Positions 13,735 to 48,200 of a stretch of DNA of 64,000 bases are shown in pieces. The stretch's first letter is position 1. Each line of letters starts with the position of its first letter. The stretch covers positions 1-64,000 of the forward strand of contig NMRA01000012.1 of NCBI GenBank assembly GCA_002633005.1, given 5' to 3'. Position numbers and translations under genes: made by a program. This DNA is from Phoronis australis (taxonomy: Eukaryota > Animalia > Phoronida). The notes under the pieces are model-generated. The model was not told the DNA's origin, did no database searches, and saw nothing but the letters and a program-made list of their open reading frames with translations.

Positions 13735-13774
<40 letters not shown>

Positions 13775-16700: not shown

Positions 16701-19700
16701 TAATTGTTATCATTGAAGTGCTGGTGCAAACAAAACAAAAATTAATTTCAGGCTGCTTTCCTGGGACATTATCCTCGATTCTGTTGATGATAGTAAGGGT
16801 TTGCTCTGCTTTTCTCTTGCTCTCTTGCAGTGAAATTGAAATAGAAAACTTAATGTCTATATTCAAAGGGATTACGTTGAGACTCAGGAAACAATCTATC
16901 CATCCAATTATTTCAGATGTTGTGTGTTCAAGTTGCTTTAGTTTTGATATCCTCTGTAAAGATCATTGTGTCTTTGCAGCTGAACAGAAGTGAATTTGAA
17001 AATCTTGACGATGATGTACGAGTGCAGTATGAAGGATTTCGCCCAGGGATGTATGTGCGAGTGGAGATTGAGCAGGTGCCTTGTGAACTGGTGACGACTT
17101 TTAACCCCACCTACCCGCTTATACTTGGAGGTCTGCTCAGCTCTGAGGATGGAATAGGATATGTTCAGGTAACTATAATAAATTAGTCTTTACCTAACAC
17201 AATGACAGGGAACATGTTGACACAGCATAAGTTGATCCGAGTCAGCTCCTGTCCACATGGCAACTTGATGGTACTGGGAGGAAGCTGCTCAGCTTCACAA
17301 TGGCAGTGTGTTAATGCTATTGTGAGTGCGAAGGTGGCCTATTGTACATGATGGTATTCTAATCACTCAAAATTTTATAGCAATGTCTTAAGCAAAATAT
17401 ACCGAAAGTTTGATAGTGTGTCCATAATGATTTTTATCCGACCTTTATTATTGTTCTGTAAAAACACCAAAGAAGTGTTTCCCGTGTGGGCTATTATAAG
17501 TAAATTCATTCAGTAAATTGTTTAAAACATCAACTACAAGTTATAAGATCTTTCTCGTTTGTGTGTAGGTGAGATTAAAAAAGCACAGGTGGTACAAGAA
17601 AATCCTAAAGACGCGTGACCCTCTTATCATATCCTTGGGTTGGCGGAGGTTTCAGACGATACCCATTTACTCAATCCAAGACCACAACATGCGCAACCGT
17701 TTGTTGAAGTACACACCCGAACATATGCACTGCCATGCCACCTTTTGGGGCCCGATCACACCACAGAACACAGGGCTGCTGGCTGTTCAGAATATTGCCG
17801 GACAAGTGGTAGGTTGTAGACATGAATTGCACAGATTTGTACTTAGTTTGGCACAAGTTTTTGCAAGTCTAAAAGTTATACTGTTGTAATTGTAACAATT
17901 CTGTAGTGAGTGCGTAAAATTGAGCTTTCTATCAATATGCACAAAGTGCAAAAAAATATTTCTCAAGGTGTGTAAAACTGCATCGTATTTATACTTCAAA
18001 ATTCATGTATTTGAAGAACAAATCTTGAGCCATGATAATGTTCATGGTTAATCACTTGTAAATCTTGTAAAATTTTATTATTTTTGTATCACTGTTTTTT
18101 TCTCAGCCCGACTTCCGCGTAGCTGCCACCGGTGTTATTGTCAAACTAGACAAATCAATGACCATCGTGAAGAAGCTCAAACTGACTGGCACACCCTACA
18201 AGATCTACAAGAAGACTGCCTTCATCCAAGGCATGTTTAACTCCAAACTGGAGGTGGCTCGCTTTGAGGGTGCCAACATACGGTCCGTGAGCGGCTTGAG
18301 GGGTCAGATCAAAAAGGCTGTGCATTCCCCAGAAGGGTGCTTCAGGGCTACGTTTGAGGACAAGCTACTACTGAGTGGTATGTGGTGTGTTGTTTATTGA
18401 ACATTCCACTATGTTGTTCAATAGTAGTAAATTCATGAAACTGTAGTGCTCTAAAAATATCTCAAACTCAAGGCTAAAAAATGAGTCAGGAGCCAATCTA
18501 CTAACTTATAATTTGTGACAGCATAATTTGAAGAGTGAAACAACCCCTTGATAGGTTTTTGACATCTTCACTGATCAGTCATGTAAAAATGGCTCTCGGT
18601 GTTACACCAAATATCAATGTTCGTGGTTTCACACTATCGGTGACTCAATTATCCATTGATTCATGCATGTAGAAATTGCAGTGGACATTAATTACCATTG
18701 TGGTAGTCAGCCAATTTCCTTAAGCTATCATGGTAAGAATGCCCAGATTCTTCCGAGGCATAGTTTTGTAGCTTTTGTTATCATAGCCAATAAGTTGGGT
18801 TTCAATTGAAATCACATTCCTTCGGTCTGTTCTTCCATGGCATCTATACAAAACCTTCTGAAGGCCTCTTCTCCACAGCTGTGTAAATAATGTCCTCTAT
18901 GATCGTTTCAGACATTGTGTTTGTAAGAACATGGTACCCTGTCCAGGTGCCACACTTCTACAACCCAGTCACTACATTACTGCTACCCCCTGACCTCAGA
19001 CTACAGTGGTGTGGTATGAAGACCACTGGCCAACTACGTAGAGAGAAAGGCCTGAAGGCTAAGGTCAATACAGACTCGCACTATAAGGTAATCTTTCTCC
19101 ATCGGAAAGTTTTTTCTCATAAGCAGCAAGTATTCATTGATCATAATCATTGTGTTGGGCATTGAGTCCGTTATTAAAGGAATCATGATTATGAAGTTTT
19201 AAAGGTAAAAATAATTTTTCATGTGTTACACATTCTGTAAAACCAGTTATCAACTTTTCTCCATGTGTTGCAATTCCTCTGTAGCCAACTTTGAACGTCC
19301 ATAAGTTTATAGACTGTGCACTTCTCTCTCACATGAGGACCGATGATTCCCAGTAGAATAGTAGAAATAAAAGTATATACTATGCAAATGTACACACAAT
19401 TATATTTCAGCCTATTGAAAGAAAAACTAAAGTGTTCCATCCACTGACAATTCCCAGAGAACTTCAGAGGAATTTGCCTTTCAAAGACAAACCTAAAGTC
19501 AGTAGAAAGGTGGTGGATCATGTGATGAGTCAGAGAGTAGCTGTGGTGCAGGAACCCAAGGAAAGAAAGGTATGCGTGGTAGAGCACATAGGAATGTTAA
19601 GGTTTTGCACTTTGTACCAATCTAGTATAGCCAATATTCAGTTCCGGAACAGATCTGATGGGACATCAAAACGTTTTCCTCAAATTTGTGAAATGGACAT

Positions 19701-20608
19701 AAATCAAAAGAATGGGAGAAAAATACTTCTTGGTTGCGTTAGTGCCTATCAAATTGAATTCCTTTGGCACATTTAGGAAACCGTTAACATATGCTTTTAA
19801 GGGTTAAAGATGGAGAGTTGTAGTTATATTTCATGAAATTTGAAAGGACTTTATTATTGGCAATCACTTTAAAATGATAGTGTCATACTCGGCAGTGTTG
19901 TTTTTCTTCTTAATTTCTGCTCTTTGACATTGGTCGAATAACATGCCTTACAAGCAAATGCATTTTGACCAAATCTGATTATTGCTGTCTTATTTACAAG
20001 AGTTGGCATCAGTGTTCTTCTTAGGCATTGGCGTCATTAAATTACCTTTGGCTATCAATTAGTTAAAGTGAATGGCTCAGTTTCTCAGTATTGTTACATA
20101 CTTGTACTAGAGACCTATTACCTCCCACCCCTAGTGGTCTACCTTTTGGGGTGCACGCACGTGAGCACACATGAACACTTTCCTTTGCACTTTTATGTTA
20201 CAGGTTAGCTGTTAACAGGATGCAGTTATCTGAATAGAAGATTTTTTATGTGTATTGGTTTTTACTGCAGAATAAAGGCTGGATTACATATCACTGTTGA
20301 AACCAAAGATCATGGTAATTAGAATGAATGTTCGGTACTTTATAAAATTAGAAAAGTTTTGTTTCTGCCCTAAAGTGAAATTCTTTTCTTTGTTTTAGAT
20401 TTCTCAGCTGATGAAAATGATGAAAACGGTTTACGAACACAAGATGAAAACGAAACATGCTGAAATGCGGAATCGGGCTCGCCAACATCAGAAAGAGACT
20501 GCCAAAGTGGACGCAAAACGTGCACAGAAACAGAAGGAAGTAAAGAAGCAGATCTTTCGTGTTCTTGGTCAGATAGAGAAAAAGAAGTCCAGGCATCAGA
20601 AGGACTAA
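5078..20608 (+). CDS. BMS1: Ribosome biogenesis GTPase BMS1, 18 coding exons
   Basis: Exons with GT-AG junctions: 5078-5244, 5861-6051, 6509-6777, 7257-7399, 8658-8779, 10346-10548, 10997-11130, 12711-12864, 13205-13994, 14354-14605, 14836-14994, 15466-15653, 16980-17168, 17569-17808, 18107-18377, 18912-19087, 19411-19569, 20399-20608. Recognisable peptides: RNPKAF; [31 protein letters not shown] (P-loop); [28 protein letters not shown]; [18 protein letters not shown]; [20 protein letters not shown]; acidic middle region; [29 protein letters not shown]; [12 protein letters not shown]; [10 protein letters not shown]; GLRGQIKKA. Confidence 0.96.
8835..9014. repeat. 180-bp fold-back palindrome (MITE-like) in BMS1 intron 5
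   Basis: Arms of about 75 bp: GAAAACATGACTTAACTTTTTGTTTGAAAACTTGATACAGA...CAATCTCCTT pairs with AAGGAGATTG...TCTGTATTAAGTTTTCAAACAAAAAGTTTAATCGTGTTTTC. Confidence 0.8.
9675..10195. mobile_element. MITE with CAGGGCTTG TIR and 6-bp TSD (hAT-like), copy 2, in BMS1 intron 5
   Basis: CAGGGCTTGGAA...TTTCAAGCCCTG flanked by TTTCTT on both sides; same orientation as 3416-3952. Confidence 0.85.
11218..12512 (+). mobile_element. Non-autonomous Helentron (HINE/DINE-1/pearl-type) with internal tandem array, BMS1 intron 7
   Basis: T-rich ends; subterminal inverted motif ATGCACC (near 11226) versus GGTGCAT (near 12468 and 12480); (GTCC)n microsatellite near 11271-11305; about 8 subunits of ~140 bp arranged as a ~425-bp higher-order repeat; short 3' hairpin CAAC..GTTG before CTCTTGTTT. 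Confidence 0.75.
13735..13772 (+). repeat. (GAT)n coding microsatellite, poly-Asp in BMS1 exon 9
   Basis: Uninterrupted GAT run in frame within the acidic region. Confidence 0.9.
15693..16276. mobile_element. Degenerate hAT-like MITE in BMS1 intron 12
   Basis: CAGCGCTC...GAGCGCTG termini and repeated subterminal GTCGCCAAA/GTTGCCAAA-like motifs; no clean TSD. Confidence 0.5.
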
Positions 20609-28500: not shown

Positions 28501-29540
28501 AGCCTAACGCACTTTAGGGTAGGAAATAACTCCTACTAGCCACTTGTGTCCTGGAAACTTTTCAGCTCAAGTAATAATCATTTCTATGAAAAAAGAGGCA
28601 TCATAAGGCTGTCATCAAACATTTTAAAACTGTCCAACTGTTGGAAACAAGACATATAACGCACAACCCACAGTTAGTTCTGGGCAAACCAGATTACAAA
28701 CAATGGATTTCTAGTACAAAACCATTCTGTGCGTCTGCTCAAATCTCCATAACTGTGGAAGCCAAGACTCCTCCATAAAATTTTAGGAAAAGCATTAAAC
28801 TTGCATCTACATCTAGAAATCTATTTTTAACTTAATAGTACTTTTTAAAAATCCATAAGATTCTTTCCTCATGGCCCTAAGGACTTTGAGCGTCATGAAA
28901 TCAGAAAGTCTTATACAATATAGGTAAGTAGGAGTTGACATCCATGGGTAAGCCAGTGTCCACGCACTCTGATTTGTCACACACAATGACTCAGTGAACC
29001 TTTTTGAAGGCGTTATGGTGGCTTTGCACCTTTTGTGTTCAGTTAGTTTGTATGGCTATGCTTGTCATTAAACTTACAATACATTGTCTACTTTATCTGC
29101 CATTGGCATATTTTGCCTACTTTGTGTGTTGGACAAATGCCAAAATCAGTCATTATGGTACACTACAGGCTAGTAATACACTACAGGGCGGACCTCAAAA
29201 AATCAAAGATATGGACCGTTTTGGGGTCCCATGTTACAGTATCGAATTTTATCACTTATAAAAAAACTTGCGATGACGAACACTGGATTCGGAATTCTTA
29301 CAGTGTTGCGCCAAGAAGGAAGTTCTACATTGTCCTGTGCTATGTAGGAATCGCCCTACATCGCACTGATTCCTACGTGGTTCGCAACACATGCGGCACA
29401 GTAGGCCATTTCGTGAAGCAGACCTGTGCAATTCCGGAGCCCATTTGTCCACCACCAATGATGGTAACATTTCTAACTGCTGCTGCTTTGCTAACAGATG
29501 TAACAAAGGTTCTAGTTAACATTTTTGTAGCGAATGCCAT
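22563..29540 (-). CDS. HADH: Mitochondrial short-chain 3-hydroxyacyl-CoA dehydrogenase, 8 exons
   Basis: Minus-strand exons: 29540-29424, 28427-28299, 26828-26671, 25984-25858, 25369-25280, 24788-24716, 23957-23841, 22687-22563. Presequence-like [12 protein letters not shown]; Rossmann motif [16 protein letters not shown]; [18 protein letters not shown]; SNTSSLPI; [19 protein letters not shown]; [16 protein letters not shown]; [27 protein letters not shown]; [14 protein letters not shown]. Confidence 0.96.
25468..25575. repeat. 13-bp minisatellite (CAAAGAGAAATAA), about 8 copies
   Basis: Directly visible tandem array in HADH intron 4. Confidence 0.9.
26978..27310. mobile_element. pogo/Tigger-type MITE in HADH intron 2
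   Basis: Left TAC..GAATTTCTGAAAATAGGCCCAT versus right ATGGGCCTATTTTCGGAAATTCACAGTA; TA at both ends; repeated GCCCAT motif. Confidence 0.65.
27344..28050 (+). mobile_element. Tc1/mariner-superfamily internally deleted element
   Basis: TA TSD; TIR TCAGGTGTCCCAAAAGTGAACCACTTTTTGA versus TCAAAAAGTGGTTCACTTTTTGGGACACTTGA. The internal ORF fuses an HTH-like N-terminus ([28 protein letters not shown]) to a transposase C-terminus ([20 protein letters not shown]). Confidence 0.85.
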
Positions 29541-29874
29541 GGCTTTCTTAATGGTATAAACTATAAAGTAGCAGCACGGTAAGCAAGCAAAACAATCGGC
29601 AATTAAACCGGAAGACCAAAGGTCAAGGAAAAATTTTTTGCAAAACCGTGACTTCAGTAATGTTACCCCATTAATAAAATTATACTTAAATCATCTCATA
29701 TCTTTTTATAAGGCAAAAAATAAAATAAAATAGTTTAAATAGAAAATAAAGTAATTTAATTAAAGATTTTGAGTTGCATACTAAATTATTTTTACGTACT
29801 TGTGATCAGTAGCTTTTGTTTTTAAACAAATTCAAGGTCAAGGACGTCAGTTTGTGGAGAGGAAATTGGTGAAC
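29541..29874. promoter_or_regulatory. Bidirectional promoter shared by HADH and GTF2H5(-YAE1)
   Basis: 334 bp between the divergent ATGs, with an AT-rich core. CCGGAAG (ETS-like) at 29608; AAGGTCAAGGA at 29619 and 29834; a perfect TCAAGGTCA at 29832; GACGTCA (CRE-like) at 29843. Confidence 0.7.
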
Positions 29875-32294
29875 ATGGTCAATGTTATGAAAGGCATTTT
29901 AGTGGAATGGTAAGTTGTTTTAACAGCACAAAATACATTGTGTTTACCTTTTATCTATTTTCAAGTGAACTTTCAAGTGTCTGCTATCTTGTCCTGTCTT
30001 ATTTTGTAATTCCCTGCGATTATTTGGCGCAGCACCGTCTGGAGACGTAGAAATCTAAGTGACTAAGACTAAGTCCATGATTAAAACGATCACTGATGGG
30101 ATCAGATCTCCAGGAATGATCGTATCACAGATGAGAGAAAGCACATATGAGTGCTCTCCAGGGACGATTATGACACAAAGGATGGAGGAGTTCGGAGCAC
30201 ACTAAGATAAAGATCCAGGTCTAGGTCAGCGGGCACAATTCACGGCATTAAGTTATATCATGGTCTGGTCATGGCAAAGTTACATTAAATGTTGTATTAG
30301 CTGGCTGCAGCTACTGCTACAGTCAAACAGGTTCGGCCTATTGTTCACTGTGAAGAGTAAAGTCTAGAGTGTACTTACATCACGTCCACACGGGACGGCC
30401 GCAAACTCCAGAAACCCCAGACGATCTTGTCACGTGGTCTTGAGAGGTGACTGGTCACGTGATGACAGGGTGACCTTTGCTGGGCACTTCTGGCGTCAGG
30501 TGTTGCACCAGGCCAAGACCAACATTGTAACGAAAAGGACATCGTGATGACAGGGCGACCTCTGCTGGGCACTTCTGGTGTCAGGTGTCGCACCAGGCCA
30601 AGATCAACATTGTAACGAAAAGGACATCACAACATAGAGACGCCACAGCTGAGACTGACGTCGATATTTACTACATATAGCACCACATAGCAAGTCAATG
30701 GTACTTCCATAGCTCCATAGATTTAATATCCAGGACACCGACGTTAGGTCTAATGGCACAATACATATTGTCTGTGTTATCATCCAAGTTGTTGCGCAGC
30801 AGCTGCATGAAGGGCCGTTCAGCAACAGCCACAGGGTAGACTGCTAGATAGGTAGAGCACAGGCACTTTCAATGACATTGTTTAATCAGCTAGACATGCC
30901 ACCGTCTCAACTGGCCCCTGTAGTGATGGTGAAGCTCCTTTTTTTCAAATTGTCCCTTCAAATTCCGCTTCTCAAATTCAAGTGTCTCAATTCAGCTCCC
31001 AGACAATTACTGAATTAAGTATATGTATTTGTAAGATCTAAAGCTAAAATTATGAGATTGTTTCAGTTTTGAAATGTTTGCCAGGTTAATAGCAAATTGA
31101 GTTTATTTGGATGGCAAGGTTGTGATGACACTGAGATCATTAAAAAACTATTGGGTATGTAGCAAAAATCGCTTATTTGGCCATCTTTTTTGGTTGAATA
31201 GTCTCTTTTTAACTTCATTCGGTGTTATCGTATGTAATTAGGAACTTTGGTAATCAGCACTGAGGAGCTAAAACAAAGTGTTCCACCCCAAAACATGAAC
31301 CAAAACAGTGGCAGGGGCTCCATGGGGTGTTACAGGCATGCAAGTTAACAGTCTCCTCAGCTGTGGGCGACAAAGCTATTCCAGAAAATGTGGAAATATC
31401 ACAGGACCAAGTGCATGTATTAGGCGACTATTGTGATGAATAACCTGTACAACTTCTCTTAGATGTTACGTGGCAAGAATCACTCTCGCCAGCCTCATAT
31501 GGACAACTTATAAGTGACTTTAGGGAAGCAACTAAATATTTGAGCAAATGATACAATTTATTGTCATATAGGAAATTTTAACCACTTTGATGATAATCTT
31601 GCCTGGTTTGTTGAACATCTCTTTGGCAAAGATTAGTGGAGATATGAGTTTGATACAGATGGCAGAATTTGGGTACTTTTGAAATCCTGGATGAAAGTAA
31701 CATACTATTGTACTAGAGGGTTATCAACACTTGTGTGCATAAGATTAACCTCTTTTGCTCCAACAAGAAACTGGAGAGTAAGAAAACATGACTTGGACTA
31801 GAATGAAGTGCATGCTAACTGACCGAGATAGAGGCATGCCTTTTTGGTGGGATGCTTTCAGCTAAATTCGTGTTATTTGGTGTTCATGGATATCAGGAAC
31901 TTAGACGAGCTACCCGGTCGCTTCGGACATTTCATGAACAGCATCCCTAGTTTCATAAGTGTGTGCAGTTAAGCTAGTTATCTGTCTTCTTTCACCAGTG
32001 TGATCTTGATGTGAAAATGAATTAATAAGTGTAAAGTATTTATAGCTTTTTATAGCTAAGTCATGGACTCACTCGTTACTTTAATTCAATGAATGTTTTG
32101 TCTGTTACAGTGACCCGGCCATGAAACATTTTCTTCTTCATCTGGATGAAACTAATGCATTGGGGAAAAAGTTTGTGATTCAAGACCTTGACGACACACA
32201 TCTATTTATTTCCGCAGACATCATAGAAACTCTTCAGAATAGAATCGATGATTTAATGGACAAGTTGTCCTTTCCTGTGACTAAGACAGATTGA
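29875..32294 (+). CDS. GTF2H5: General transcription factor IIH subunit 5 (TFB5/p8/TTDA), 72 aa, 2 exons
   Basis: Exon 1 29875-29909 (ATG in AACATGG context, donor TG|GTAAGT) and exon 2 32111-32294 (acceptor TTACAG|) join to give [72 protein letters not shown], closely matching TFB5 family proteins. Missed by the ORF track because it is split. Confidence 0.95.
30458..30627. repeat. 85-bp tandem duplication in the GTF2H5 intron
   Basis: CGTGATGACAGGG...TGTAACGAAAAGGACAT occurs at 30458 and 30543 with a few mismatches. Confidence 0.85.
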
Positions 32295-32308
32295 GGCTCT
32301 TATTGACC

Positions 32309-32791
32309 ATGGAACCTGTTTTTGTCCACGATGATGACGCTGAGTGGGTTGATGAAGGCAGCGATTACCCAGGCAACAGTAAAGAGTGGGAGAAGATGCG
32401 AAATGTTTGTACAACTGAAGGATATAAGGAGGGTATTGCTGCAGGGGAACAGGCTAAACTGCAGGAGGCATTTAATATGGGTTACAAGAAAGGCGTGTAT
32501 GCAACGGTGAACATTGCTAGAATGAGAGGACTGTTGAATGCAATCTTGTTCAGTGTACGGACTGGGATTTTGAAACCAGCAGGGAAGGATTTGGACAGAT
32601 GGATGAAGGACAGATGGATGAAGGAAGTGGATGAAGTAATAGTGAGCTTAAAGCAGGCAGAGGCTATGGTTGTCAAGGACAACAACATGGAAAGTGTTGA
32701 CTTGTTGGCAATACACAAGTCATGCGTCAGGTTATTGAATGAAATGGATGTAGAGGTGCCCCATGATGTTATTGGTGCATTCCTACTATAA
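32309..32791 (+). CDS. YAE1: YAE1 homolog (Yae1_N domain; Fe-S maturation adaptor for ABCE1/Rli1), 160 aa, intronless
   Basis: ATG at 32309 in ACCATGG context. Acidic N-terminus followed by KEWEKMRNVCTTEGYKEGIAAGEQAKLQEAFNMGYKKG...ARMRGLLNAIL, the EW..EGY.EG..AG...LQ..FN.GY..G glycine-repeat pattern I recognise from YAE1. LTO1/ORAOV1 shares the domain but fits less well. Confidence 0.85.
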   Translation: MEPVFVHDDDAEWVDEGSDYPGNSKEWEKMRNVCTTEGYKEGIAAGEQAKLQEAFNMGYKKGVYATVNIARMRGLLNAILFSVRTGILKPAGKDLDRWMKDRWMKEVDEVIVSLKQAEAMVVKDNNMESVDLLAIHKSCVRLLNEMDVEVPHDVIGAFLL

Positions 32792-33415
32792 TGAGTGGGT
32801 GCTAAGTTTGATGTAAAATTTCCCAATTGTATGTTGACAAGCAACAAAACTTGTTGATAGCACTAGTTATTCCAGTCCTTGTATAGTGGAAAAACAAATC
32901 AGTGGCTATATTCGGTGATATTGTATGTGAATCCGAAAAAAAATTATGCCCAGCGCATTTAAACTCACATGCTGTAGCTACTCATCATTTTGACATCTGG
33001 TCAGAGATGATGACCTCCTCAAAAGGCTGAGACCAGTTCTCCACGCTCTGTACTTATCAATCCGTTAGCTGCAATCACAACAATCCATACATCAATATCA
33101 TGTGTTTGATCGCCAACAGGGTGTGCGATAATTGGATTTAGAAGTGTGGCCTTTTTAAATCTGGTTTTAGAATTTTGAGTTGTACCTGTCCAGCCATTAG
33201 ATTCTGGGGTTCCTGTACTGAAACTCATGACTCTGCCCCCCATACACTTCGCAGAGGATTGTAAAATATAAAGTATGTTGCCACACAAGCCTTTTGTTTG
33301 ATAGAGTTACCATTGCCCCAATAGTCATGATGCTTTAGAGTAAGTTTGCCCCACGAGATGTCCAAGCAAAACCACCAGTTGTTAGTAACCAAGGATTTTG
33401 TCTCTAGTTCTGGGC

Positions 33416-33802
33416 CCAGGTCTTATCTTCTAACTGACCTTGCAATTATTTTTTACATTTTCTATTCTACTTTCATGCAAACTCAAGATAAGTTGTTCAA
33501 TGTCTGTTTTCTCTGCTCGAGTATGTTATGGTTTGTGCTGACAAGTTTCTAGTACCAGTTTGCAGTTGATGACCCCTGATTTGAGTTTCAGACTCGAGTA
33601 AAAACTCAAAATTTCGAGTTCAGCCTCATATTTATAGTGTTGATACTGGGGTCATCAGGTGCAAGCCAAGATTATACAGTCACCTGTGTAAATCATAGTG
33701 TACTTGAGCACTGAACAATAGACAAGTATTGTAAATTTGCACATAAGTAAAATCTCAAGTATAATTTAGAGTTAATTTCAAGTACAAAGATTAGACCCCT
33801 GG
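33416..33802. mobile_element. Fold-back Harbinger-like MITE downstream of YAE1
   Basis: Ends CCAGGTCTTATCTT and AAGATTAGACCCCTGG; internal inverted pairs TGCAGTTGATGACCCC/GGGGTCATCAGGTGCA and TGCTCGAGTATGTTATGGTTT/AAATCATAGTGTACTTGAGCA. Confidence 0.55.
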
Positions 33803-36500
33803 TGATTGATATTTTAATGTAGCCGATAGTACTTGTTGTTTGAAGAGAATATCATTTATATCCACATTTGGTCCTTAAAAATATTGTTCCCCTCACCCGA
33901 CCCTCACTACTCTGATATCGGTTTGTAGGTCAATAACATTGATTTTTCCACTTTTCATTGTCTGGGGGCACTCAATTTTGTTACAGATATGTTGTGTTTT
34001 TTCAATTGACTAATTGTCAATTTACCAATAAAGTATTTTGAATCCCACGCCTATTGTTCGGTGACCACTGTGTTCTTTACAGTTACTGTTTATTAGGGTG
34101 ATGTTAGCACTTTTTATTCCTTTACTTTCCCATTTGTTGTGAAAAATGTCTTATTAATTGAATAAGTATCCTCACTCCGTGAATTACAGCTACTAAGTAC
34201 AGCCTGTAACAGTTCTTAGTATGTGGGCCGTAGCACCGAGATAGTTCTCAGTACGATATCAAAAATGGGAAAGAGAGTGGGAACCGAGTCAGCATTGTAG
34301 AATATGAGTAAGAATCCGTCCAACGGTGTCTCATTCAAGTCATGTTGTTGGCAAAAGGTGCCGGTTTCTTCAAGTAACATCTTGTTTTCCAGTTATTTAA
34401 GGTTGTAGTGTTTCGAAACTGAAGTGAAGTTATTCACTACATCTCCATTTACTGTTTTCTGTACCATCGATTTTCGTGAGTCACTGTATACAAAAAGCCA
34501 CCACTATGGCTCTTGTGGAAACAAGATTCAAAAGAGTTCCCATAGTGTTACCAAAGGAGTTATCTGAACACAAGCAATAAAATTTGCTCGCGGTTGACAA
34601 CTGGCTTCACCAGATTGTCACTTGGGAGTAAGTGTGGCAAAAACATAGTTGTTGATGCAAGATAATTCCAAGCCAATAGATGGTGTTGCAGTGCCTGGTG
34701 GTCGATTTCTTTGGTCTTTCAAAAAATGAATGGATCACCAATAAAATCCCAGGTCATTCTGATGAAGCCAATTGTCCACACAACAGGTAAGTCCCAATGT
34801 GCTTGTTCAGATACGACCCTCTTCATAATGGATATTTAAAAGGCTGATGAACATTTGTGGACATTATAGTGAATTTTTATTGATAACAATAATCAATGTA
34901 CTTTATGGCGTGACGGTTTTATTTTTGTTGTATACCTACCAAGAAACAGCCATACACATTTATCATGACCTATAATTGTGCTCTCTGAATTCGTGACCAC
35001 AAGTGCAATCTAATGTTCACATTATAACAAAATAAAGCATAAACATGTGCAATAGTTTATTGCAAATTCACCATAATAATTTCACAATGCAATGTATACA
35101 CCAGACATATAAACTATGTCGAGAATATCCCAAGTGACACTAATAGCAATTTCCACATTCCAACACCAAATTGTAAACGAAACAGTTTCAAAATATGTAC
35201 AGTTTTAAAGTTTACGGTGATATATGCAACACTATACTTACAATATACAAAATAATGTCTATATGTTTAAAGACATTCTTTGTACCAAAAGTCTCACTGA
35301 ATGGTTTGTCTAAGTAAATTATAAGAAACCTTGGGCATCTTCACAGTAAATGTACCTTCACACAGCTGTGATATCTGCCAGTAAAATTTTAACACGCACA
35401 AAACTTATAACATTTGCAAGTAATCTTTGCTTCTACATTATATACATATCTAGCCAGCGCCTACTGTATTTTTCTTTAGAGCCTGTAATTCACAAGATCT
35501 GGCTTATGTGAACCATGCCACCCTCCAAAACAGGCAGTGCAGTGAAAGTTGGAACACGATTTGCACAGCTCCAATCGGGTATTCCACACTGTCCCATGAA
35601 CAAACGAGTGTAAATACTAAAACAGCACTAGGGTTTACAAAAGTTAAAAATTAGAGCACAGTATTCACGTTTTTAACGAACCGCTTTTAACATAGGATAA
35701 TAGTTGCAAAGCTACTGAAACCGAAATTTTTAAAATGAGCATTTAAAATATAATCAAGATTGTTTACATCACCAAGCAATGCTATGTGAAAAAAATTTAA
35801 CAAGACTGGTCGTTCAAATACAAAAATATAATCGAAATGGGGCAGAAACGGAACATCAGATCACTTGAGGATAGTTTGTTTAAGCTAGGAGCCGATGTAT
35901 TTGTAATCCTTCGGATAGATTTAAATGAGCTAAAATCATTGACAGTCTCAGACTCAAACTTGAACAACCAAACGATTGCAAACACTGCTTCCAAAATCTA
36001 TCACTCGTCCCTCTGTATTATCACATGCACGGCCAACATAACAAAATATATCTCAACTAGCAAGCACTGTTTAGAGTTCTGATAACATAGCAAGTCTTTA
36101 GCTAGGCTGATAAACATTACAAATACCAATATTTGTTCACAAGACAGAAGATGAAATACATCAATAAAAACTTGGCAACATTCTTTAAATTGAAATATAA
36201 TTTTACTCAATTGTATCAGACACAAAACAGTAGTATCCACACCATGCTCTGTACATAACTGTAACAATATTACTATGGCTGTACAACAAAATAGCTTCCC
36301 AAACAACAGCAACAGACCCTGCAAAGTTGCACGGACAAGACCAACCGTGTAATGTCATTGAAAATAGACTGTTATTCAAAATACTATCATACACTTGTAA
36401 TACTGTTACATATGAAAATCAGTAGTGGACAAGCAATGCAAATCACTTATTCTCATTTCTGCATTCAGTTAATTATTGGCCGCATGCTAGATGTTTATCG

Positions 36501-37870: not shown

Positions 37871-40800
37871 TTGCTGTTGTTGCAGCTCTTGCTCTTTTGT
37901 TAGCTCATCAACTGTAAGGACAGATATTTACCATAAAATAGACCCCTTTAAAATTCTGCGCTTATCCGTGAACATACAACCACGAGTTAAATATAATAGG
38001 AAACATTCGAGGGAGGCAGTCACTCAAAACCCATCAACTAGAATTCAACAAAATAACGCGGGTACTTACTCTGGGCAAGAAGGTCGTCAGGTATTTCAGC
38101 ATCCAGTACTGACATAGCGCTGGTGACAGGTGTGGGCTGAGCCCTGGCACTCACTACTGAGCGCAGCTCATTCTTTACATACTGTGAGGTGGAACCAGCC
38201 GTGCTCATCATGTTGGCACTAGATGAGAGTGACATGCTGTGGAGAAACATAAGTTAGTGAGCAATGTGTGAGCAATGTGTGCTTTTTAACAGTCGACAAG
38301 GAGGAAAGCAACACCAAACAATCCTATTTTGCACGCTTCTCATTAACTCAGCTAGTGCTTATAGATTTTGAGATTAAATCGAAATGCCTACGATGAACAC
38401 TTCGGCACTCATTTTGTTATTTAAAATATGATCCTAATGACAACAACAACTTAGGTTGAAGGTCGACACTTACCAATACTCATCTCTAATTTCCATATAA
38501 CAAAATACAAACAATTCGTGTAAGAATCATTTTCAAATGACAAAGTGCTCAAATCAACCCATTAGGAAGTTAATTATTAAAAGTTTTCACAAAAAACATA
38601 ATCACAATCGACATTACTCAACATTACAAAATGATGCAAATGAATTAATATTTTCATGGAACACACAGAGACTAAGTCCGAAGGAAAGATTATTTCATTG
38701 ACTTTGAACAAAATGAATAGTTGAAAATTTGTTACGCATTACTAGTGGGTCAGCATACAAGACCACTGCATTAGATTAATTCGGTGCTTTGATAGACTGT
38801 AATGAGGACCTAAGTGGCAACATCCGAGACTTACCCATCACTCATTCCATAGAAGTTTATGTCCTGGTCAAAATTGCCACCGGTATTAAAAGAGGACGTA
38901 GGGAGGCTAACTGAAGAGCCGTAAGGCGATGTCCTTGAACTGGGTTGTTGATTAGGTGAGACCATCAGGGGGTCTTGGGCTACACCACCAAATGGGCTCT
39001 GGGGACCCCTAGGGCTGGACCCACGACCTGAAAGTGAAGCAAAGAATGAAATGAGAACATATGCAGAATAAGCTCAATATAGCCTGTAACTTGCTTTATG
39101 CAATTCGTTGATTTGCTAGCAATTCCGCCGAAATGACTGGAAAATGCTAAGAATGTACTACTATAACGTAAGTCCAGATGAGCAATATACTCTATGTTAA
39201 AAAAATAGCAACATCCACAGACCACGGGTAATTACTGTTTCTTACAAGTTAAACTAACAGGAAACTGAACCAGTCCAGTAAAACTGGATTCCCAGGTTAT
39301 CAGTTATTTTTACAACTTGGTTTAACTAAATAAACGCCATGTTTTTCATCTCGACAAAATCCCAGTGCTGGTATGATCACGTTACACATCACCAGGAGGT
39401 CCCATGGGCAGCGCAGCAATGAAAAAGTGGGGGGCTAAAGCCCCCTCAGCCCCCCTGTGGTGCACCGCCTATAGACCTTGTGCGGCGTAGCACTGAAAGA
39501 AGTGGGGGGCTATAGACCCCAACCTCCTATGGTGCGCCGCCAATGGGTCCACTGTATAACATTTCATTTCGATGCATAACATTTTCACATTCTCGAAGTA
39601 AAATTAGTCATCTTTATACAGAATTACAGACTGAAGAGTAAGTACACGAAAATATTTCAAAATCATTCAACAAGGCCATCACTTAGTCTCACCAGCAGTA
39701 CTGATGGCTGGCATTGCAGCCTGTCGCTGCATCATTTGCTGACGTATCTGTTGGCGACGTTGCTGCAGCTGCTGCTGCTGTTGTTGCTGCTGCTGCTGCT
39801 GAATCTGCTGCTGTTTGTTGAACATATGCATACCAGCATCAGACTGGCTGTTGAACATACTGCCCTGTGGCGTCATCATGGTGTGTTGGGGGCGCTGTGG
39901 GGGCATGCTACCCAGGAAAGATGGAGACTGGAATACAGCAAAGAGTCATGTGGTGAACAGGAGTAGAACTTTGTGTTTCCTGGTAAGCACTAAAAACGTT
40001 CATCTCCAGGGGCTATGACCACCAAGTTTTACATGAAACTACAGTAAAAAAGCCCAACACACCAGATTAAATTCGAAAGTGAACATGAAGCTCACCATAG
40101 AATTGCTCAGTTTTCAAGTCCAATCTCAAGTTACTTTTGGAAGTTTTTAACACAATTATGCTATCCTTGGAGCCCAATTCTATTGATTACGGCCCTTAAA
40201 CAAGATACAAGCTGCATTTTTGGAACACTTAAGTGACCATCATATCACGCACACTTAAGTTATTATTATAAGTCAGAACAACAATTGGAATGGTTCAGAT
40301 ACGAGCTTTAGGGGGGTGTTTGCGGTGATTACAGGTTTGCGATTTGCAAGAGCTATGTTCCACTGACCTGGCCTGGCACACTCTGTTGCTGCTGCATCAT
40401 AGCCTGGGTGGGTCTGGCCTGAGGCTGCGGCCACTGCTGTTGTTGGCCAGGGAAGGAGGAGGGATTGGACGGCTGCTTCAGCACACCCATAGATGACTGA
40501 CTACTACTGGTCATGGCACTCTGATTGAACATGCTAGCCGAACGCTGTAAACAAAAAGACCATTTATCAGTTTCATAACCCACTAGCAGTAACAGGGTCG
40601 GTAACGTAATGATTCTGCAGCATCCAAGTTTGGATGGAAAATGGGGGAAATTTTTGCCCAGCTCAACTAGGTTGTACAACTTTTTAGTATGCAATGATTA
40701 CACGGTACAATCAAATATCAAAAAACAATTGGTAAAATCAAAAGCATTTGTAGCAAAGTGGCTATGGCAAAAAAGAAATTTCAGAAATTATATAATAGAA

Positions 40801-42250
40801 GTTACTTTCGTTAAAAATTGAAGTCTTTACCATAGATTGAATGAAGCAAATGCAATTTAACTGATCAACAGCACACCTTAACCCAAAACTGAACAAGATC
40901 AACAAATTATACTATACAGTGCAGAAACACGACTTATAATATATTATAGTAATTAATTCAAAGTTTCAGTAAATGTCAATTCCACTCCAGGATTACAAAA
41001 CTGAAGGTTTTCAAGTCACATGTTCCCATTGTCTTTATCGAAAGAAACCAGGAGAGTCAATCTCTATCACACTTACCGGTATCGTTACATTTGGAACTGT
41101 ACCACTGTTCATGAGATCTGCAAAGCTCTCAGCAAAACTACCATTTCCTTGAAGGGAGGGGTCCATATCCAAGCCACTACCCTGCAAATGCAACAGCAGC
41201 CATGACAAACCCATACATATCTCCACAATTATGCTCCCTGGTCATCATCCAACTATATCTGCAATGCACATGAGTAGTCATGACCAGTCACAACTATAAC
41301 TGCTCTGCATATGAAAAGTCATGACAAGTCACAACTATAACTGCACTGCATATGAAGTCATGACAAGTCACTTTTTCTCAACATATGTTGTCAATCATAT
41401 GTTGACAAAGGACGTTATTACACCCGAAAATTTCAGTTGATCCATTCTTGTTGTTTTATTTACCTATTTACGTGAAACAATAGTATCCTTGGGAGGATCT
41501 GGATCGACTTATTTAGTTTCAGATTTATTTTCTACATTATTTGTCAATCATACAAACGGAGACTTTGGTCAGCTTTCATTGCGCTTTTGTATCGCAATAA
41601 AAATAATACACTCCCAAATTGCACTATATGCAACCAATGCACAAGCAGATGTGAAGAAACTATTTGAATATTGTCAGGGTGAAAACACCTTTCCATTATT
41701 TCTCTTTCCCAACTTGGTCATCCAACAAGTTTAACATCACGACACTAAACATCACTTAACAAATGCTGGTTATTTTTCCTTCTCAATGTTTTGTCTTGTA
41801 AATCTATCATTTGTCCAGAAGATCAACAATAAGCAACTGGACATTCACCAGGCACCAGGACTTGAAATCAAACTCAAAATAACTTTCAACATGTGCTTAC
41901 ACTATGGTTACTTAACATTGCATTCAAGCAGCAAGGAAAATTTCCAGTTTGAGTTTGGAGATTATACCCCAGGGCCATGTGACTCGAATAAAGAAAGAGT
42001 CCCTACTTTATCATTAGAAAAGAGCTAAAGAAAGCAGCCAGGCAGCAAGGGAATGTTGAAGAGATCAAAGTCACATGTGTCCTGAATACTCGTAAGTGAA
42101 TCTCAAGTGCCTTACTATCAGTCTCTACTTCAACTTACCTGTTGCATGAAGCCACCAGCCTGCTGATACTGCTGCTGTAGTAGTGTGCGCTTACGCAGCT
42201 CTGTCAGGCGTTTCTGCTCCATCAGTCTCTGTCTTTGCTGTTGCTGCTGC

Positions 42251-42285
<35 letters not shown>

Positions 42286-45200
42286 CTGCTGCTGCTGCAT
42301 CAGAGACTGGCGGGCGTGGGGCGACATGGAGGGTCCACTACTACCATGGTAACCAGGGAACTGGCTAGATAAACCTGTAACAGACAACAGGAATACTAGT
42401 AGAAATTTGCAATAACACGAGAGACTTTGTCAAAAAATGGTATACAGAAGGCGCTACCCCAAAGCCATAGAGGCAGAAGTTTTCTGCAGACAAGCCCAGG
42501 GCATATGTTCAGAAAATGACATCTTCAAATCCAAAAGTTAAATAATACAGTGGACATCGTTTCAATGGACTTTTTTGCCCAATAATATGCTGTGACAAGA
42601 GTCTGATGTTTGCAATTCAAAAGGTTTCGGAGTTCGTTGCAAGTGAATCTGGGCAAAGTTAAGAAAATGCATTTTTTCAAATCCTCGTTTTAGACGTTTT
42701 GTCAAAAAAATATTCCTTTCATAAGAACTCGGGGTATCTTAGCAGATGGGCTTCCCTGTAGAAAACAGGTATGATTTCTGGATACACAGGTTGCGATTTC
42801 TTTCAACAGAAAAACTAATACAGTGTTTGTAGAGAGTTCTCTATAACGAAAAATGTCAATCAATTATGAAGAATAACAACTTGAATGTTTTCCCCTCGAT
42901 GCACTCTTTGTTCTTTCTTCTCTAGCACTGACAGCTCATGTCACACAGTGAAGTGACAATGATGAATGAAAATATAAAACCTTCAACACTGCACATCACC
43001 ATTGGCCACAACACCATCTACAAGTGCTGTTACTTTTGTTTACTATTTCAAACACACTTGACTAATTTACTGTACCAATGGACTCACCAGGCATGCGTAT
43101 CTGTGCCTGATGTGGTTGCTGCTGTGAGAACTGAGGTGACTGACTGAACCTGGGCTGAGCCTGTGGTGGTGGAGGCTGCAGAGGGGGTCCAGCAGCTGCC
43201 ATGTCCATACTGACAGGTGGTATAATGCTTGTCTGGCGCATGCGTCCCAATGACATGTTATCACTGCTGGCAGTGGTAGTGGCACCAATTGGCATTGAGC
43301 CCAGGCTATCCATGGGCTGAGAATACTGGTTGGTGGCTCGATCAGCCTCACCCATCAGCTGTCGTTGGATGGCGTCGATGGCCATTTGCTCATTGGGATC
43401 TGATGTGTGTGTGTTGCCACCAATGCCCAACAAATTGTCAATCTCAGAGACATCAGACGTCTCAAATACTTGTTGAATTTGTGCCAGCAACTGCGTATCA
43501 TCCAGATTGCTACTAGCAAAGTCCTGACTCGAGTAATCCAGAGCACTGCTATTATTATTGTTGTTGTTGATGTTATTTCCCATCATATTTACCCCACCAA
43601 CACCACCAATATCCATGGGCTGGGGCAACATCTGCTGCATGCTCCCAGGTTGACCTGGATTGGTACCAATCTGTCCTGGCTGTCCGTTGGTATTGCCAGG
43701 AAACGGCGTATTAGGATTTGTACGTGGATTGGCCCTCGGGTTGGCCGTACGGGATGGCTGCTGCAGATCATTTTGCAATGTGTCCGGCAATCCATTTTGG
43801 ACTGGGTTGAAATCAACGACATTTGACGGAGTTGGCAACTTGGGCATCCCCGCAGGGTTCGGACCGCCCCCTATTGGGGCACTCTGCACAGTCATTCGCT
43901 TCTTGGTGAGCAACTCAGCCAGCAAAACGCTGGATTTCTGGTTGCAGCCAGACGAAGTTGTGGGCTCGGTGTCCATGTTCTCTGTACTATCCACAAGGTC
44001 AGTGTTGGACATTTTACGTTTGACGCTGCTACGCATCTCATGCTGCAGTGTCTGCTTCTCCCACAGGTTTGTTAGCAATGAGTCAAGGTCACGGTCTTGC
44101 AGGGGCAAGCTGTTACTGCTGCTGCTGTTGCCACAAGCCGGCGTGGACAACAAATCATTGATGAACGAGTCGTTGGAATTGGAGTACGGATTCTGTGTAC
44201 TGTCTACATGACCCACATTGGTCGTCTGTTCTGATTTAACATGAGACAGCTGTTGCTGGTCTCCCATGTGTTGGCTAGTCACTTCCTGTTGAATACAAAC
44301 CACATATTGAAAGGTGATTGCATCCACATTTCAACTTGCTCTAGTCACTGGTTTAAAACATTCTCAACACAAGTGAAAGCTGTGCAACTTGCTGCACTAG
44401 GAATATTTTTAAAGCTTAACACATTAAGTACTTAGAAGTTCTAATTATCGCTAATTATCTAGAGACTAGAGAAGGACATTCACTTTCAACTACACTGATT
44501 GCGTAACTTGTTTTTCAACAGATCAGTCCTAGCTGCAACATAAGTGTTTACGGCTTGAATAATAAAGAGAAACACTTTGTAAAATGTTTCTCATTATTCG
44601 CCAGAAACTAACATTAAAACACAGAGGCATTCCTCTGGAGATTTCTGTTATATAGCAAATAATCCAACAATTAACATTATGTAAAGCTGCATTTTTGCAC
44701 CAGTCTTAATTTCACGTTCTTGTATGTTACTGTTGCCATCATGAATGAAAGCGTCAATTTCTAGCATGAGTGGTCAGCCAGTTAACTGTGCTGTGAAAGC
44801 AACATTTCCTGGTACACAATCAAGTATCACTGAATCCATTTTACTATCAAAAACAACCATGACAAATAATTGGGTATAAAATTCAACTTAAGTAATCACA
44901 GTCTGAAAATAAAACATTTATCGGCTATCGAGTAATTTGTACTAACTGTTGCTCTGTAACACAAACACAGTAAGGACACACAGTACTAACCAACCTCAAT
45001 ACCATGTTCATGAGGTACATGGCAACATCTTGTAAAAAAACTGATTTTCTTAAACTTTTGCATTTTACAGCAAAAAGAATTCACAAAGGTGACGAGCAGC
45101 ATTCATTGAAATAACTTGTCCCTTTCAGGAGATAGTTGAGGGTGTGAAGAATTTGGGCTGCATTGGAAAAGGCAAGTTGCGCCCTCTATTGCAATAGACA

Positions 45201-48200
45201 CTTACCGCTGACTGGTCTTCCTCTGTTAACAATTTCTGCATGATGTTACACTTGTCTTTCTTTTCCACTTGCTCATTTGTGTCGTTGAGTAGCCGCTACA
45301 AACGACAGTAAATAAAAACATTACAATCCCATGATTGTCAAAAGCTTATTGTTACCTGCAGTCCACACCAAAATTAGTATTCAACTGAAACTCTATGACC
45401 TGGTATGCAAATCAAAGAAAATAACTTAATTCCTTTCTTTCATATCCTTTGTGCAATGGACCCAACCACAAGACCGTGCACATCTGAAGCATCACAAAAG
45501 ACACCAGACCACCTGCACTTGTTTTTTCATATCTGTATAGATAAGTCTGAAACCATAATTGTGTCAAAAAATGTATATGTGGGCCAGTATACCTAATTCC
45601 CCTACCACACTGGTATTAATAACAGACCTTTAGAAGCATATTGTCAGCTTTCTTTGGTTCCGCCTCATTGCCCTTGTTGACCTCTCCAGGTTTAACCCCT
45701 GGATCAGTAAGGTCATCCTCCTCACTGAGCAGTGACTTAAGAACACTGCCACTCTTGCCCTTACTACTGGTGGGTGACATGCTCTCCTTAGTGTTGCTAT
45801 CAGGGTCCACCTGTAACAAGCACCCACACCTAGGTGTAACAACTTCAGAAAGATAACGGTATACAACAGACACAATACATGGTCACCGTCGACATTTTGA
45901 TTTTAATCACATAACTATTAGCATAAGGACTCCATGTCATAGAGAAAACGATAATTAATAAACAAAAAGTACTTAATGATCTACCATATACATGTATTTG
46001 TAACATACCAACACTGACAGACACATGTCCATAACATACTTTCCCTTTCACCCTCCAAGCACACAACATAATTATTTGTATTATTAACTCTGACATAGTT
46101 TTGTAATGCTAACTTAGATATTAAAATTGAAACCTCCACATAAACATTTTAGCATTTGCCATGGCTAAGGACTAATGTTGTTCAGAGTGAATACAAATTC
46201 TTTTAACCATCGTATTTTATATAAAAGTACTATCTGAAAATGCAACAAAGGAAAATATCAGGGTCACTTGCACAGTGCCACTTAGACTATACTTTCAGAG
46301 AGGTACTCAAACTTTACTATTGTCAGAAGTATAACAAGGGTCCTTCCGATAGAAATCCATGCATTCTGGTGAAGTGCTTTCTGCAATCAATCTATTCAAA
46401 TGTCGAAAAAGGTACTTTATGCATTGCCTAGTGAATATCAGGTCCCCCATTACAAAAGAGTTAAAAATGAGGTACACCTGCAATAGCTAACACTTCCCTA
46501 CATTTATTTTCACACAAAAATGTGTTTCCATGCACTTATCACTGAATCCCAACCTAAATATTTGTAAACATGGTTTACATTAACAAAATTCCCTTTTCAT
46601 TATACCTGAGGCTGATCCTGNCCTTCCCCCCCTCCCATACAGATTTTGCTGGAACAGCCCTCACACAAAAATGTGTTTCCATGCACTTATCACTGAATCC
46701 CAACCTAAATATTTGTAAACATGGTTTACATTAACAAAATTCCCTTTTCATTATACCTGAGGCTGATCCTGCCCAGGGCCTGGCTGAGGCGACACTTGGC
46801 TTCTCCTGGAGCTATCTGGCAATTCGGCTGGGTCGTCATCTGCATCGCCAGAGAGCAGACGTCGCAGCTGATTCTGAGGCTTGACTCCATCCTTGGATGC
46901 CTGGCGTATACACATCTGCCTCAGCTTGTCCTGAGGATTGTTGGGAAGGCCGGCCCGCATCTCCATGTTGCGCAGAGCATCCATAGGTGTGGTGGCACCT
47001 GGACTGGCATTGGAACCAGTGAAACCACTATTCGGTGTACGAGACATCCCTGTAACAGCATATGTTCTAGTTTTAAGAGCATATGCTTCAAATGGAACTT
47101 TACAATGATTTTTTGAAGCATTAAAATAGTTTTCATCAAACAATTTCACAAAGACCTAGAAGAACTCGTTGAGCGCAAACTTACATACCGTATTTGCCGT
47201 AATAACCGCCCATGCCTATATAAGCGCCCCCCAGACTTTGCTAAAATAAGCGCCCAGTCCATGAACATGTACGTGCGAAAAATACCTTACCTACAGTCCT
47301 AAAATTCTATAGTAACGTCTTCAATTTATCAATAATATCCGAGAGTCCTGAAAAAAGTCATTGTGTGCAGAATTTGTAGACCACGAGCCTCGCCATTATG
47401 TCGGTATTTAGCCGTGACTATACACTTCAAACTTCCTCCATGCCTCAAAACGAACACAAAAGTTCTGCTGATATTGCGGGGACCAATGGTCTGGCCTTTC
47501 AGAGCAGACGTAGTGTACTTGTCTATGGGATTGCCTTGTAGATATTTCCCGCTTTCAACAGGAATCCAAATTTCTTTGTAGGCCTACACATGAAAACCGT
47601 GAATCAAAGACTAATAAAAAGCTTGGCCAGTGTTAAAAGCACATGGCTACGTACATGAACCTGTCATCAGACATTAGTCAGGAACTATCCATTCATGAAA
47701 CGGGAAGCATAGCATCGGCAAGAAATGAGTATTGGCTCTAATTTCCGACAGTTTCTAATACTATAAAAATGTTTGTGTTATTTTTAAGATGAATTGTTGG
47801 CTTAACCATAATTGGTGTTTTTAAGCCAAATATCCAATAAAATGACCACTGACAGTGAATGCTTACACACCCTTACACCGAAAAATTACTGTCAGATAGT
47901 CACGTACGCCGCATCCAGCCATACGGCGACTAATATGGTCTTACCGTGACAAATGTCGAACGTTTTTAGCACATGAGACCGGCAAGTGCTGAATGAAACA
48001 CACTCTGGTTTAGGCCTACTGCTTGTGCAAATTTCTTTAGATACAATGCACATCTAGCTCGTTAGATTGCGTAGCTCTGGCCAAAAGATGGTATCTGCTC
48101 TGGCAAATGAACTCTGGTGACACGCACGCGCTTGCTTACTCACAGACAACTTCAAAACAAACGTCACGTGAGAACAACATGTGAGTTCGTCCAGACATTT

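Follow-up and report, generated by a model that had tools for sequence, protein, structure and literature searches.

The GTF2H5-YAE1 locus

The window analysed here is a stretch of 64,000 nucleotides (nt) from Phoronis australis (contig NMRA01000012.1, positions 1 to 64,000, forward strand). Its plus strand carries the gene GTF2H5, also named TFB5 and coding for the small DNA-repair protein p8, and directly behind it an open reading frame (ORF) for a YAE1-like protein. GTF2H5 has two exons and a spliced product of 72 amino acids (aa). Coding exon 1 (29875..29909) starts with an ATG at 29875 in the context A at -3, G at +4. A GT-AG intron of 2201 nt (29910..32110), which contains repeat-derived pieces, separates it from coding exon 2 (32111..32294), which ends with the stop codon TGA at 32292-32294. 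The intercistronic spacer (32295..32308) is only 14 nt long and contains neither an AUG nor a poly(A) signal. The YAE1 ORF (32309..32791) follows. It is intronless, encodes 160 aa, ends with TAA at 32789-32791, and its ATG at 32309 stands in the same A(-3), G(+4) context. Only two ATG-started ORFs of at least 150 aa were found on the plus strand of the 64 kb window, and the YAE1 ORF is one of them.

YAE1 lies in frame +2 relative to GTF2H5, and its stop-to-stop frame opens at 32285, so that it is closed upstream. When the layout was derived again, the coordinates agreed with those of the original prediction, an earlier reading of this DNA that had described an intact, intronless 160-aa YAE1 ORF in another frame, 14 nt behind GTF2H5. 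That reading had also excluded a long shared frame, which holds because the YAE1 frame differs and is closed by an upstream stop. Stop read-through or a single shared frame for GTF2H5-YAE1 was rejected on the same grounds.

Identity of the two proteins

GTF2H5 exon 2 matched Pfam Tfb5 (PF06331) with an E value of 1.6e-19 and 70.1 bits (curated cut-off 23.5), and the GTF2H5 protein is 84% identical to a Lottia protein. The second ORF matched Yae1_N (PF09811) with an E value of 2e-8 and 34.2 bits (curated cut-off 27.5), and this was the sole Pfam family matched. Its deca-GX3 region spans codons 38-76. Residues G38, G42, G46, G58, G74, Q52 and F55 are common to all 20 rows of an alignment of YAE1 with 19 relatives, W27 is also retained, and alanine is found at positions 54 and 70, where many rows have glycine. 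A C-terminal tryptophan or phenylalanine is described as a mark of Lto1 (PMC4523923). The ORF ends with leucine and lacks this typical residue. Among 18 YAE1 matches that were looked up, none was named LTO1 or ORAOV1 and several were named YAE1. Because the deca-GX3 region is present and the C-terminal residue of Lto1 is absent, and by the names of its relatives, the second ORF is classed from its sequence as YAE1-like rather than LTO1/ORAOV1.

The HMMER search with YAE1 gave 136 matches, none with an E value below 1e-10, and the longer ones reached at most about 34% identity. In a word-indexed search, 0 of 37 candidates held up. A tree was built by a quick method from 135 matches and the window ORF, leaving out P0028 as a repeat-driven match. 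The window row stands on a long branch, unplaced within a 60-row group (support 85) that contains named animal proteins, and the branches of other invertebrate YAE1 rows are equally long. One of the matches, protein P0115, was called as YAE1 with a partial MEA1 domain in front, a sequence that hints that YAE1 may closely follow another small gene in a further lineage.

RNA across the two reading frames

RNA was taken from four runs of the same species, namely a contig set (X1) and raw stranded reads of one study (X2-X4). The reads used made up about 18-19% of each raw run, and splice joints and loose ends were reported only when backed by at least three reads. The intron joint (29908>32110, GT..AG) was present in 6, 5 and 9 reads of X2-X4 and in one X1 contig. 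The last 150 nt of the intron (31950-32099) had a depth of 0 in all four runs. From there on, the RNA comes from the plus strand only, and pooling X2-X4 leaves no 30-nt bin of 32100-32849 empty; taken singly, X2 lacks depth in one bin (32640-32669), next to a polymorphic indel. Over 32280-32309, the bin that includes the stop codon, the spacer and the YAE1 start, the depths were 3.0, 2.67 and 4.0 in the three raw runs. The original prediction had proposed RNA from the 29909/32111 junction through 32791 as a check and had left an internal start in the intron to be excluded. The joint and the continuous plus-strand depth bear out the former, and the empty intron end speaks against the latter.

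Exon 2 had a mean summed depth of 19.7 and YAE1 one of 14.9; the step up expected of a separate YAE1 promoter is thus not seen. In 31950-32849, the only loose ends were exon 1 letters before 32110, in all four runs, and no splice joint was listed within this region. At the available depth, neither a separate start or poly(A) end nor a leader or an alternative exon was found near the spacer. Contig 5 of X1 covers 32224-33642, although a contig alone is no proof of one transcript. In X4, five molecules begin at 32464 and five end at 29842; as mates, these would be copies of one 422-nt fragment that runs from exon 1 into YAE1. These results make it very likely that GTF2H5 and YAE1 share one spliced mRNA, single molecules of which would carry both complete ORFs. 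An operon resolved by spliced-leader trans-splicing was also considered and rejected, since at this low depth no loose end was found near 32295-32309 in any of the four runs.

The transcript might nevertheless carry YAE1 silently in its 3' untranslated region (UTR), with the protein made from a minor monocistronic isoform that starts in exon 2 or uses a cryptic acceptor. This is the main rival to reinitiation at the YAE1 start. Two cryptic acceptors lie beside the GTF2H5 stop, a CAG ending at 32289 and a GAG ending at 32295. Both are in register with YAE1 from exon 1, and the pyrimidine shares before them are 0.6 and 0.5, compared with 0.55 for the true acceptor. If exon 1 were spliced to 32289 or 32295, YAE1 would be preceded by short upstream ORFs only, or be joined to exon 1 in frame. 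In the fly, only 45 of 159 dicistronic loci are given as exclusively dicistronic (PMC4528330), and a minor isoform below about 10-15% would escape notice at the present depth. In contrast, all 20 junction reads listed use 32110, neither joints nor loose ends are listed around 32289-32309, the depth does not rise at YAE1, and the intron end is without depth. Such an isoform is thus an unlikely source of the protein, if a serious one, and YAE1 is probably made mainly from the GTF2H5-YAE1 mRNA.

The leader of the shared transcript (29842..29874, plus strand) is at least 33 nt long, as five molecules end at 29842 in X4, and the true transcript start may lie slightly upstream. The shared 3' UTR (32792..34400, plus strand) is at least 1.6 kb long, with RNA still present at 34400. 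The earliest AATAAA behind exon 2 is at 34027, where the original prediction had placed the next poly(A) signal, and no ATTAAA occurs within 32111-36500. RNA depth persists beyond 34027 up to 34400, the last position of the region covered, which indicates that 34027 is not the sole 3' end. Repeat-derived pieces in the intron (30380-30680 and 31280-31311) and in the 3' UTR (33589-33623) draw many reads of other transcripts on both strands.

Selection on the YAE1 reading frame

Variants among the same runs were counted in YAE1 codons 1-160. With the stop-codon row excluded and site 32373 entered twice for its two alleles, the 14 variant rows comprise 8 synonymous and 6 nonsynonymous changes. This corresponds to a ratio of nonsynonymous to synonymous polymorphism (pN/pS) of 0.19-0.25, with a binomial p of 0.002-0.011 depending on the transition bias assumed. 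In codons 31-75, six changes were synonymous and none nonsynonymous. The sole indel listed in the ORF is an in-frame tandem duplication of 15 nt near 32593, which varies between individuals; in the 3' UTR, 8 of 10 listed indels were not multiples of three (one intron row was dropped from this tally and one row was not displayed). X2-X4 also carry a variant of the stop codon, behind which the following codon, TGA, would still end the ORF. The window, X1 and the X2-X4 haplotypes all keep the frame intact. YAE1 is therefore under purifying selection, and the original prediction's proposal to look for selection on YAE1 is answered by a within-species pN/pS of about 0.2.

These data also bear on whether the YAE1 frame is an untranslated retrocopy in the GTF2H5 3' UTR, with a working YAE1 elsewhere. 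Its lack of introns, its long branch in the tree and its identity of at most about 34% over the longer matches would fit a retrocopy. The low pN/pS, the single in-frame indel, the ORF kept intact in every haplotype and the retained glycines, W27, Q52 and F55 do not, and the branches of other invertebrate YAE1 proteins are just as long. A retrocopy is therefore very improbable.

How the second reading frame may be translated

Nine AUGs lie ahead of the YAE1 start in the spliced mRNA; four share the GTF2H5 frame and the other five do not. After the strong first AUG, two of the in-frame ones, at 29887 and 32121, carry a G at -3. The five out-of-frame AUGs open ORFs of 1-10 codons, all of which are closed by 32256. 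Their number is not reduced, since 3.7 out-of-frame AUGs would be expected in the GTF2H5 coding sequence under synonymous recoding.

Leaky scanning past GTF2H5, perhaps aided by the short leader and by restart after the 1- and 2-codon ORFs of exon 1, could in principle deliver ribosomes to YAE1. In its favour, the leader is only about 33 nt, at -3 several of the out-of-frame AUGs show a pyrimidine, the ORFs behind them being short, and leaky scanning is described for algal bicistrons and for fly stoned and Snapin (PMC11892635). However, in the algal leaky-scanning bicistrons the first start is described as weak and upstream AUGs as few (PMC11892635), and the anatomy of GTF2H5-YAE1 is the opposite. 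A strong first AUG, nine upstream AUGs in all, two of the later ones with G at -3, and the absence of AUG depletion argue against leaky scanning, which is considered improbable, and for termination-reinitiation.

Internal ribosome entry, or a tethering element in exon 2, was weighed as well. According to FlyBase curators, most fly dicistronic pairs do not fit the scanning model (PMC4528330). At the present locus, 32200-32340 folds no better than its shuffles (z 0.36) and no Rfam match was found in 29500-35500. The core motif of the termination upstream ribosome-binding site, TGGGA, is also absent from exon 2 and the spacer. This mode of starting YAE1 is hence quite improbable.

The features around the GTF2H5 stop point instead to termination-reinitiation, because the spacer is free of AUGs and the YAE1 AUG is the first one after the stop and has a strong context. 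The favoured reading, with a probability of roughly 0.55, is that the spliced GTF2H5-YAE1 mRNA gives both proteins and that YAE1 is made by termination-reinitiation. YAE1 would have come to lie in the 3' UTR of the housekeeping gene GTF2H5 and would use the GTF2H5 promoter. Ribosomes would finish the 72-codon GTF2H5 ORF, and a small share of the post-termination ribosomes would stay on the mRNA, cross the AUG-free spacer and restart at the well-placed YAE1 AUG. The expected output would be much p8 and little YAE1. The original prediction had proposed one mRNA for both proteins, with the p8 ORF acting like an upstream ORF. Spliced continuous RNA and selection on YAE1 support the first part, and it is likely that one mRNA yields both GTF2H5 and YAE1. 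The strong start and eight further AUGs argue against p8 as a leaky upstream ORF.

TFB5 genes with a close downstream partner

A single metagenome scan gave 16 TFB5 loci (L001-L016), all of which have a long same-strand ORF 26-92 nt past the TFB5 stop. In L002:90-772, the ORF behind TFB5 starts after 26 nt, has 155 aa and is of the zf-HIT (Swc6/ZNHIT1-like) type, which is the arthropod arrangement. In L004-L016, the spacer is 36-79 nt and the second ORF, of 227-234 aa, has HhH/OGG-like matches. Three of these 13 loci were run against Pfam, which gave an OGG match for L012, a weak HhH match for L008 and none for L004. These loci probably hold the REX1 pair of small green algae, the algal origin being deduced rather than recorded. 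All 13 have C at -3 of TFB5 and no out-of-frame AUG, with the limit that many are near-duplicates and few are independent cases. The window, L001 and L003 have A at -3 and 5 or 6 out-of-frame AUGs.

In L001:194-2481 and L003:515-1985, TFB5 is followed after 92 and 86 nt by a 106-aa BolA-like ORF and, after a further 93 and 97 nt, by a GWT1/PIG-W ORF, which has 522 aa in L001, the only one of the two run against Pfam. The TFB5 intron is absent from both loci, the first start is strong, six out-of-frame AUGs are present and the spacers contain no AATAAA, so that each is a candidate tricistronic unit. Six further proteins of one cluster (P0022 and P0166-P0170) join TFB5 and CDC26, a subunit of the anaphase-promoting complex/cyclosome, in one frame. 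They have tryptophan where a relative stops, and the linker bears an indel. Judged from these sequences, they are likely a TFB5-CDC26 bicistron whose TGA was read through by the gene caller. When viral_contigs and genome_contigs were scanned for TFB5, none of the candidate stretches (2 and 162, respectively) was confirmed. A fused TFB5-YAE1 protein was rejected as a candidate, as none occurred among 26 long TFB5 proteins, 136 YAE1 hits and the Atlas listings, in which no mixed TFB5-YAE1 cluster was found.

In the open-access literature, to which the search was largely confined as subscription journals are mostly outside its coverage, neither YAE1 as a TFB5/GTF2H5 partner nor a bicistronic YAE1 was found, in agreement with the original prediction, which knew of no description of the pairing. 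What came up, besides unrelated work, was the fly and algal pairs already known.

Probable promoter and neighbouring genes

A gene resembling HADH lies on the minus strand, head to head with GTF2H5, with its ATG at 29540 and a Pfam 3HCDH_N match (E value 6.6e-4) that is under the cut-off. Minus-strand RNA ends cluster at 29600 and 29608 and plus-strand ends at 29842, leaving about 235 bp between them, and this interval (29608..29842) is likely a bidirectional promoter common to both genes. Farther away, exons of a GTPase gene with Pfam Tsr1/GTPase matches, presumably BMS1-like, lie at 6424-19776 on the plus strand. Exons of a glutamine-rich gene bearing LxxLL, which we take to be NCOA/SRC-like, lie at 40353-55965 on the minus strand; no Pfam match was found in the four exons tried.

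Discussion

Several observations weigh against a shared mRNA translated by reinitiation. The RNA depth is low; at 32297 and 32307 the three raw runs have 3, 1 and 4 reads. The spacer bin is a trough (summed depth 9.7), though 7 of 24 bins are lower, and X3 goes from a depth of 4.8 down to one of about 1 over the GTF2H5 stop, which could hide a 3' end and counts mildly against a single RNA species. Short reads do not prove both ORFs on single molecules. Long first ORFs are reported to disfavour reinitiation, and classical 40S reinitiation is said to prefer spacers of 40-140 nt (PMC10275272). On the comparative side, YAE1 is next to TFB5 in none of the 16 metagenome loci, Yae1_N occurs in 0 of the 26 long TFB5 proteins and a TFB5 match in 0 of the 136 YAE1 hits. 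The TFB5 and YAE1 accessions are thousands apart in Branchiostoma and Mizuhopecten, an indirect measure for which only these two taxa were comparable and the contig with the Mizuhopecten TFB5 has 805 nt. The conserved TFB5-YAE1 adjacency in related genomes that the original prediction had suggested looking for thus did not emerge, and the pairing is likely lineage-restricted. The spacer length also has another side, since shorter spacers are described to favour 80S-type reinitiation in yeast (PMC11952965).

Little is understood about natural cellular mRNAs on which ribosomes must start again behind a complete protein-coding ORF. GTF2H5-YAE1 offers a compact test case, as it combines a strong first start, an AUG-rich first ORF, a 14-nt spacer and a conserved second protein. 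With it, the TFB5-first bicistron known from flies and algae gains a new partner, which suggests that the arrangement recurs with many of them. Annotation pipelines would miss such arrangements or fuse them.

The identity of the second protein invites a more speculative idea. ABCE1 is a ribosome-recycling factor, which removes ribosomes at stop codons. The locus could be a feedback sensor of ribosome recycling, and the TFB5 ORF a reusable carrier of at least five partner sets, working by leaky scanning in algae and by reinitiation in some animals. Taken together, this remains a long shot. The five sets would be Swc6, REX1-B, YAE1, BolA plus PIG-W, and CDC26, the last two being candidates. Yae1-Lto1 is described as the adaptor for iron-sulfur (Fe-S) insertion into Rli1/ABCE1 (PMC4523923). 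The second ORF carries the deca-GX3 region as this adaptor does; its binding to LTO1/ABCE1 is a prediction from sequence. If iron, Fe-S supply or ABCE1 activity fell, more ribosomes would be retained after the GTF2H5 stop and would restart 14 nt on at YAE1, giving more adaptor and restoring ABCE1. If YAE1 output indeed rises when recycling fails, Fe-S supply and ribosome recycling would be joined in a direct homeostatic loop. Against this idea, reinitiation upon Rli1 depletion is reported to occur without marked AUG preference, and the Rli1 level was not limiting for bicistronic output in the yeast strain described (PMC11952965). Moreover, the pairing seems to be lineage-restricted, and no such logic applies to the many partners that TFB5 carries.

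Comparison with known systems

Fly Tfb5 (p8) and CG31917 (p18, Swc6-like) are encoded on a dicistronic mRNA (PMC7013941, PMC2276209), with dicistronic transcripts only and the ORFs 54 nt apart (PMC4528330). This agrees with the original prediction, which had named a fly p8-Swc6 bicistron. A review ascribes the TFB5-Swc6 pairing to all arthropods (PMC7013941). As in the fly, TFB5 is the short first ORF in P. australis and is followed after a short spacer by an unrelated second protein; in contrast to the fly, the partner is YAE1 and the spacer has 14 nt instead of 54. The fly p8 and p18 products are said to interact, in work attributed to Herrera-Cruz in 2012. We know of no functional link between p8 and YAE1.

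In green algae, REX1-S (TFB5) is described as bicistronic with REX1-B (PMC7896298), and the Auxenochlorella REX1 spacer is also 14 nt (PMC7896298, PMC11892635). TFB5 comes first and the spacer is short in both systems, the algal second ORF being in another or the same frame. However, the algal pairs have a weak first start and no out-of-frame AUG, the opposite of GTF2H5-YAE1, and both algal products act in DNA repair, whereas YAE1 does not do so directly. The second ORF of the window is neither zf-HIT Swc6 nor REX1-B, as it matches only Yae1_N. The human bicistronic transcripts ASDURF-ASNSD1, PYURF-PIGY and MIURF-MIEF1 (PMC13303939) likewise have a small conserved protein ahead of a larger conserved one, and neither GTF2H5 nor YAE1 is mentioned in the main text of that report (0 and 0 mentions).

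The suggestion that the tiny p8 ORF can carry a second gene is thus supported by flies, algae and the further candidate partners, although the TFB5-first layout itself is not new. What is new in P. australis is the YAE1 partner and the AUG-rich, strong-start anatomy, and with it the likely mechanism.

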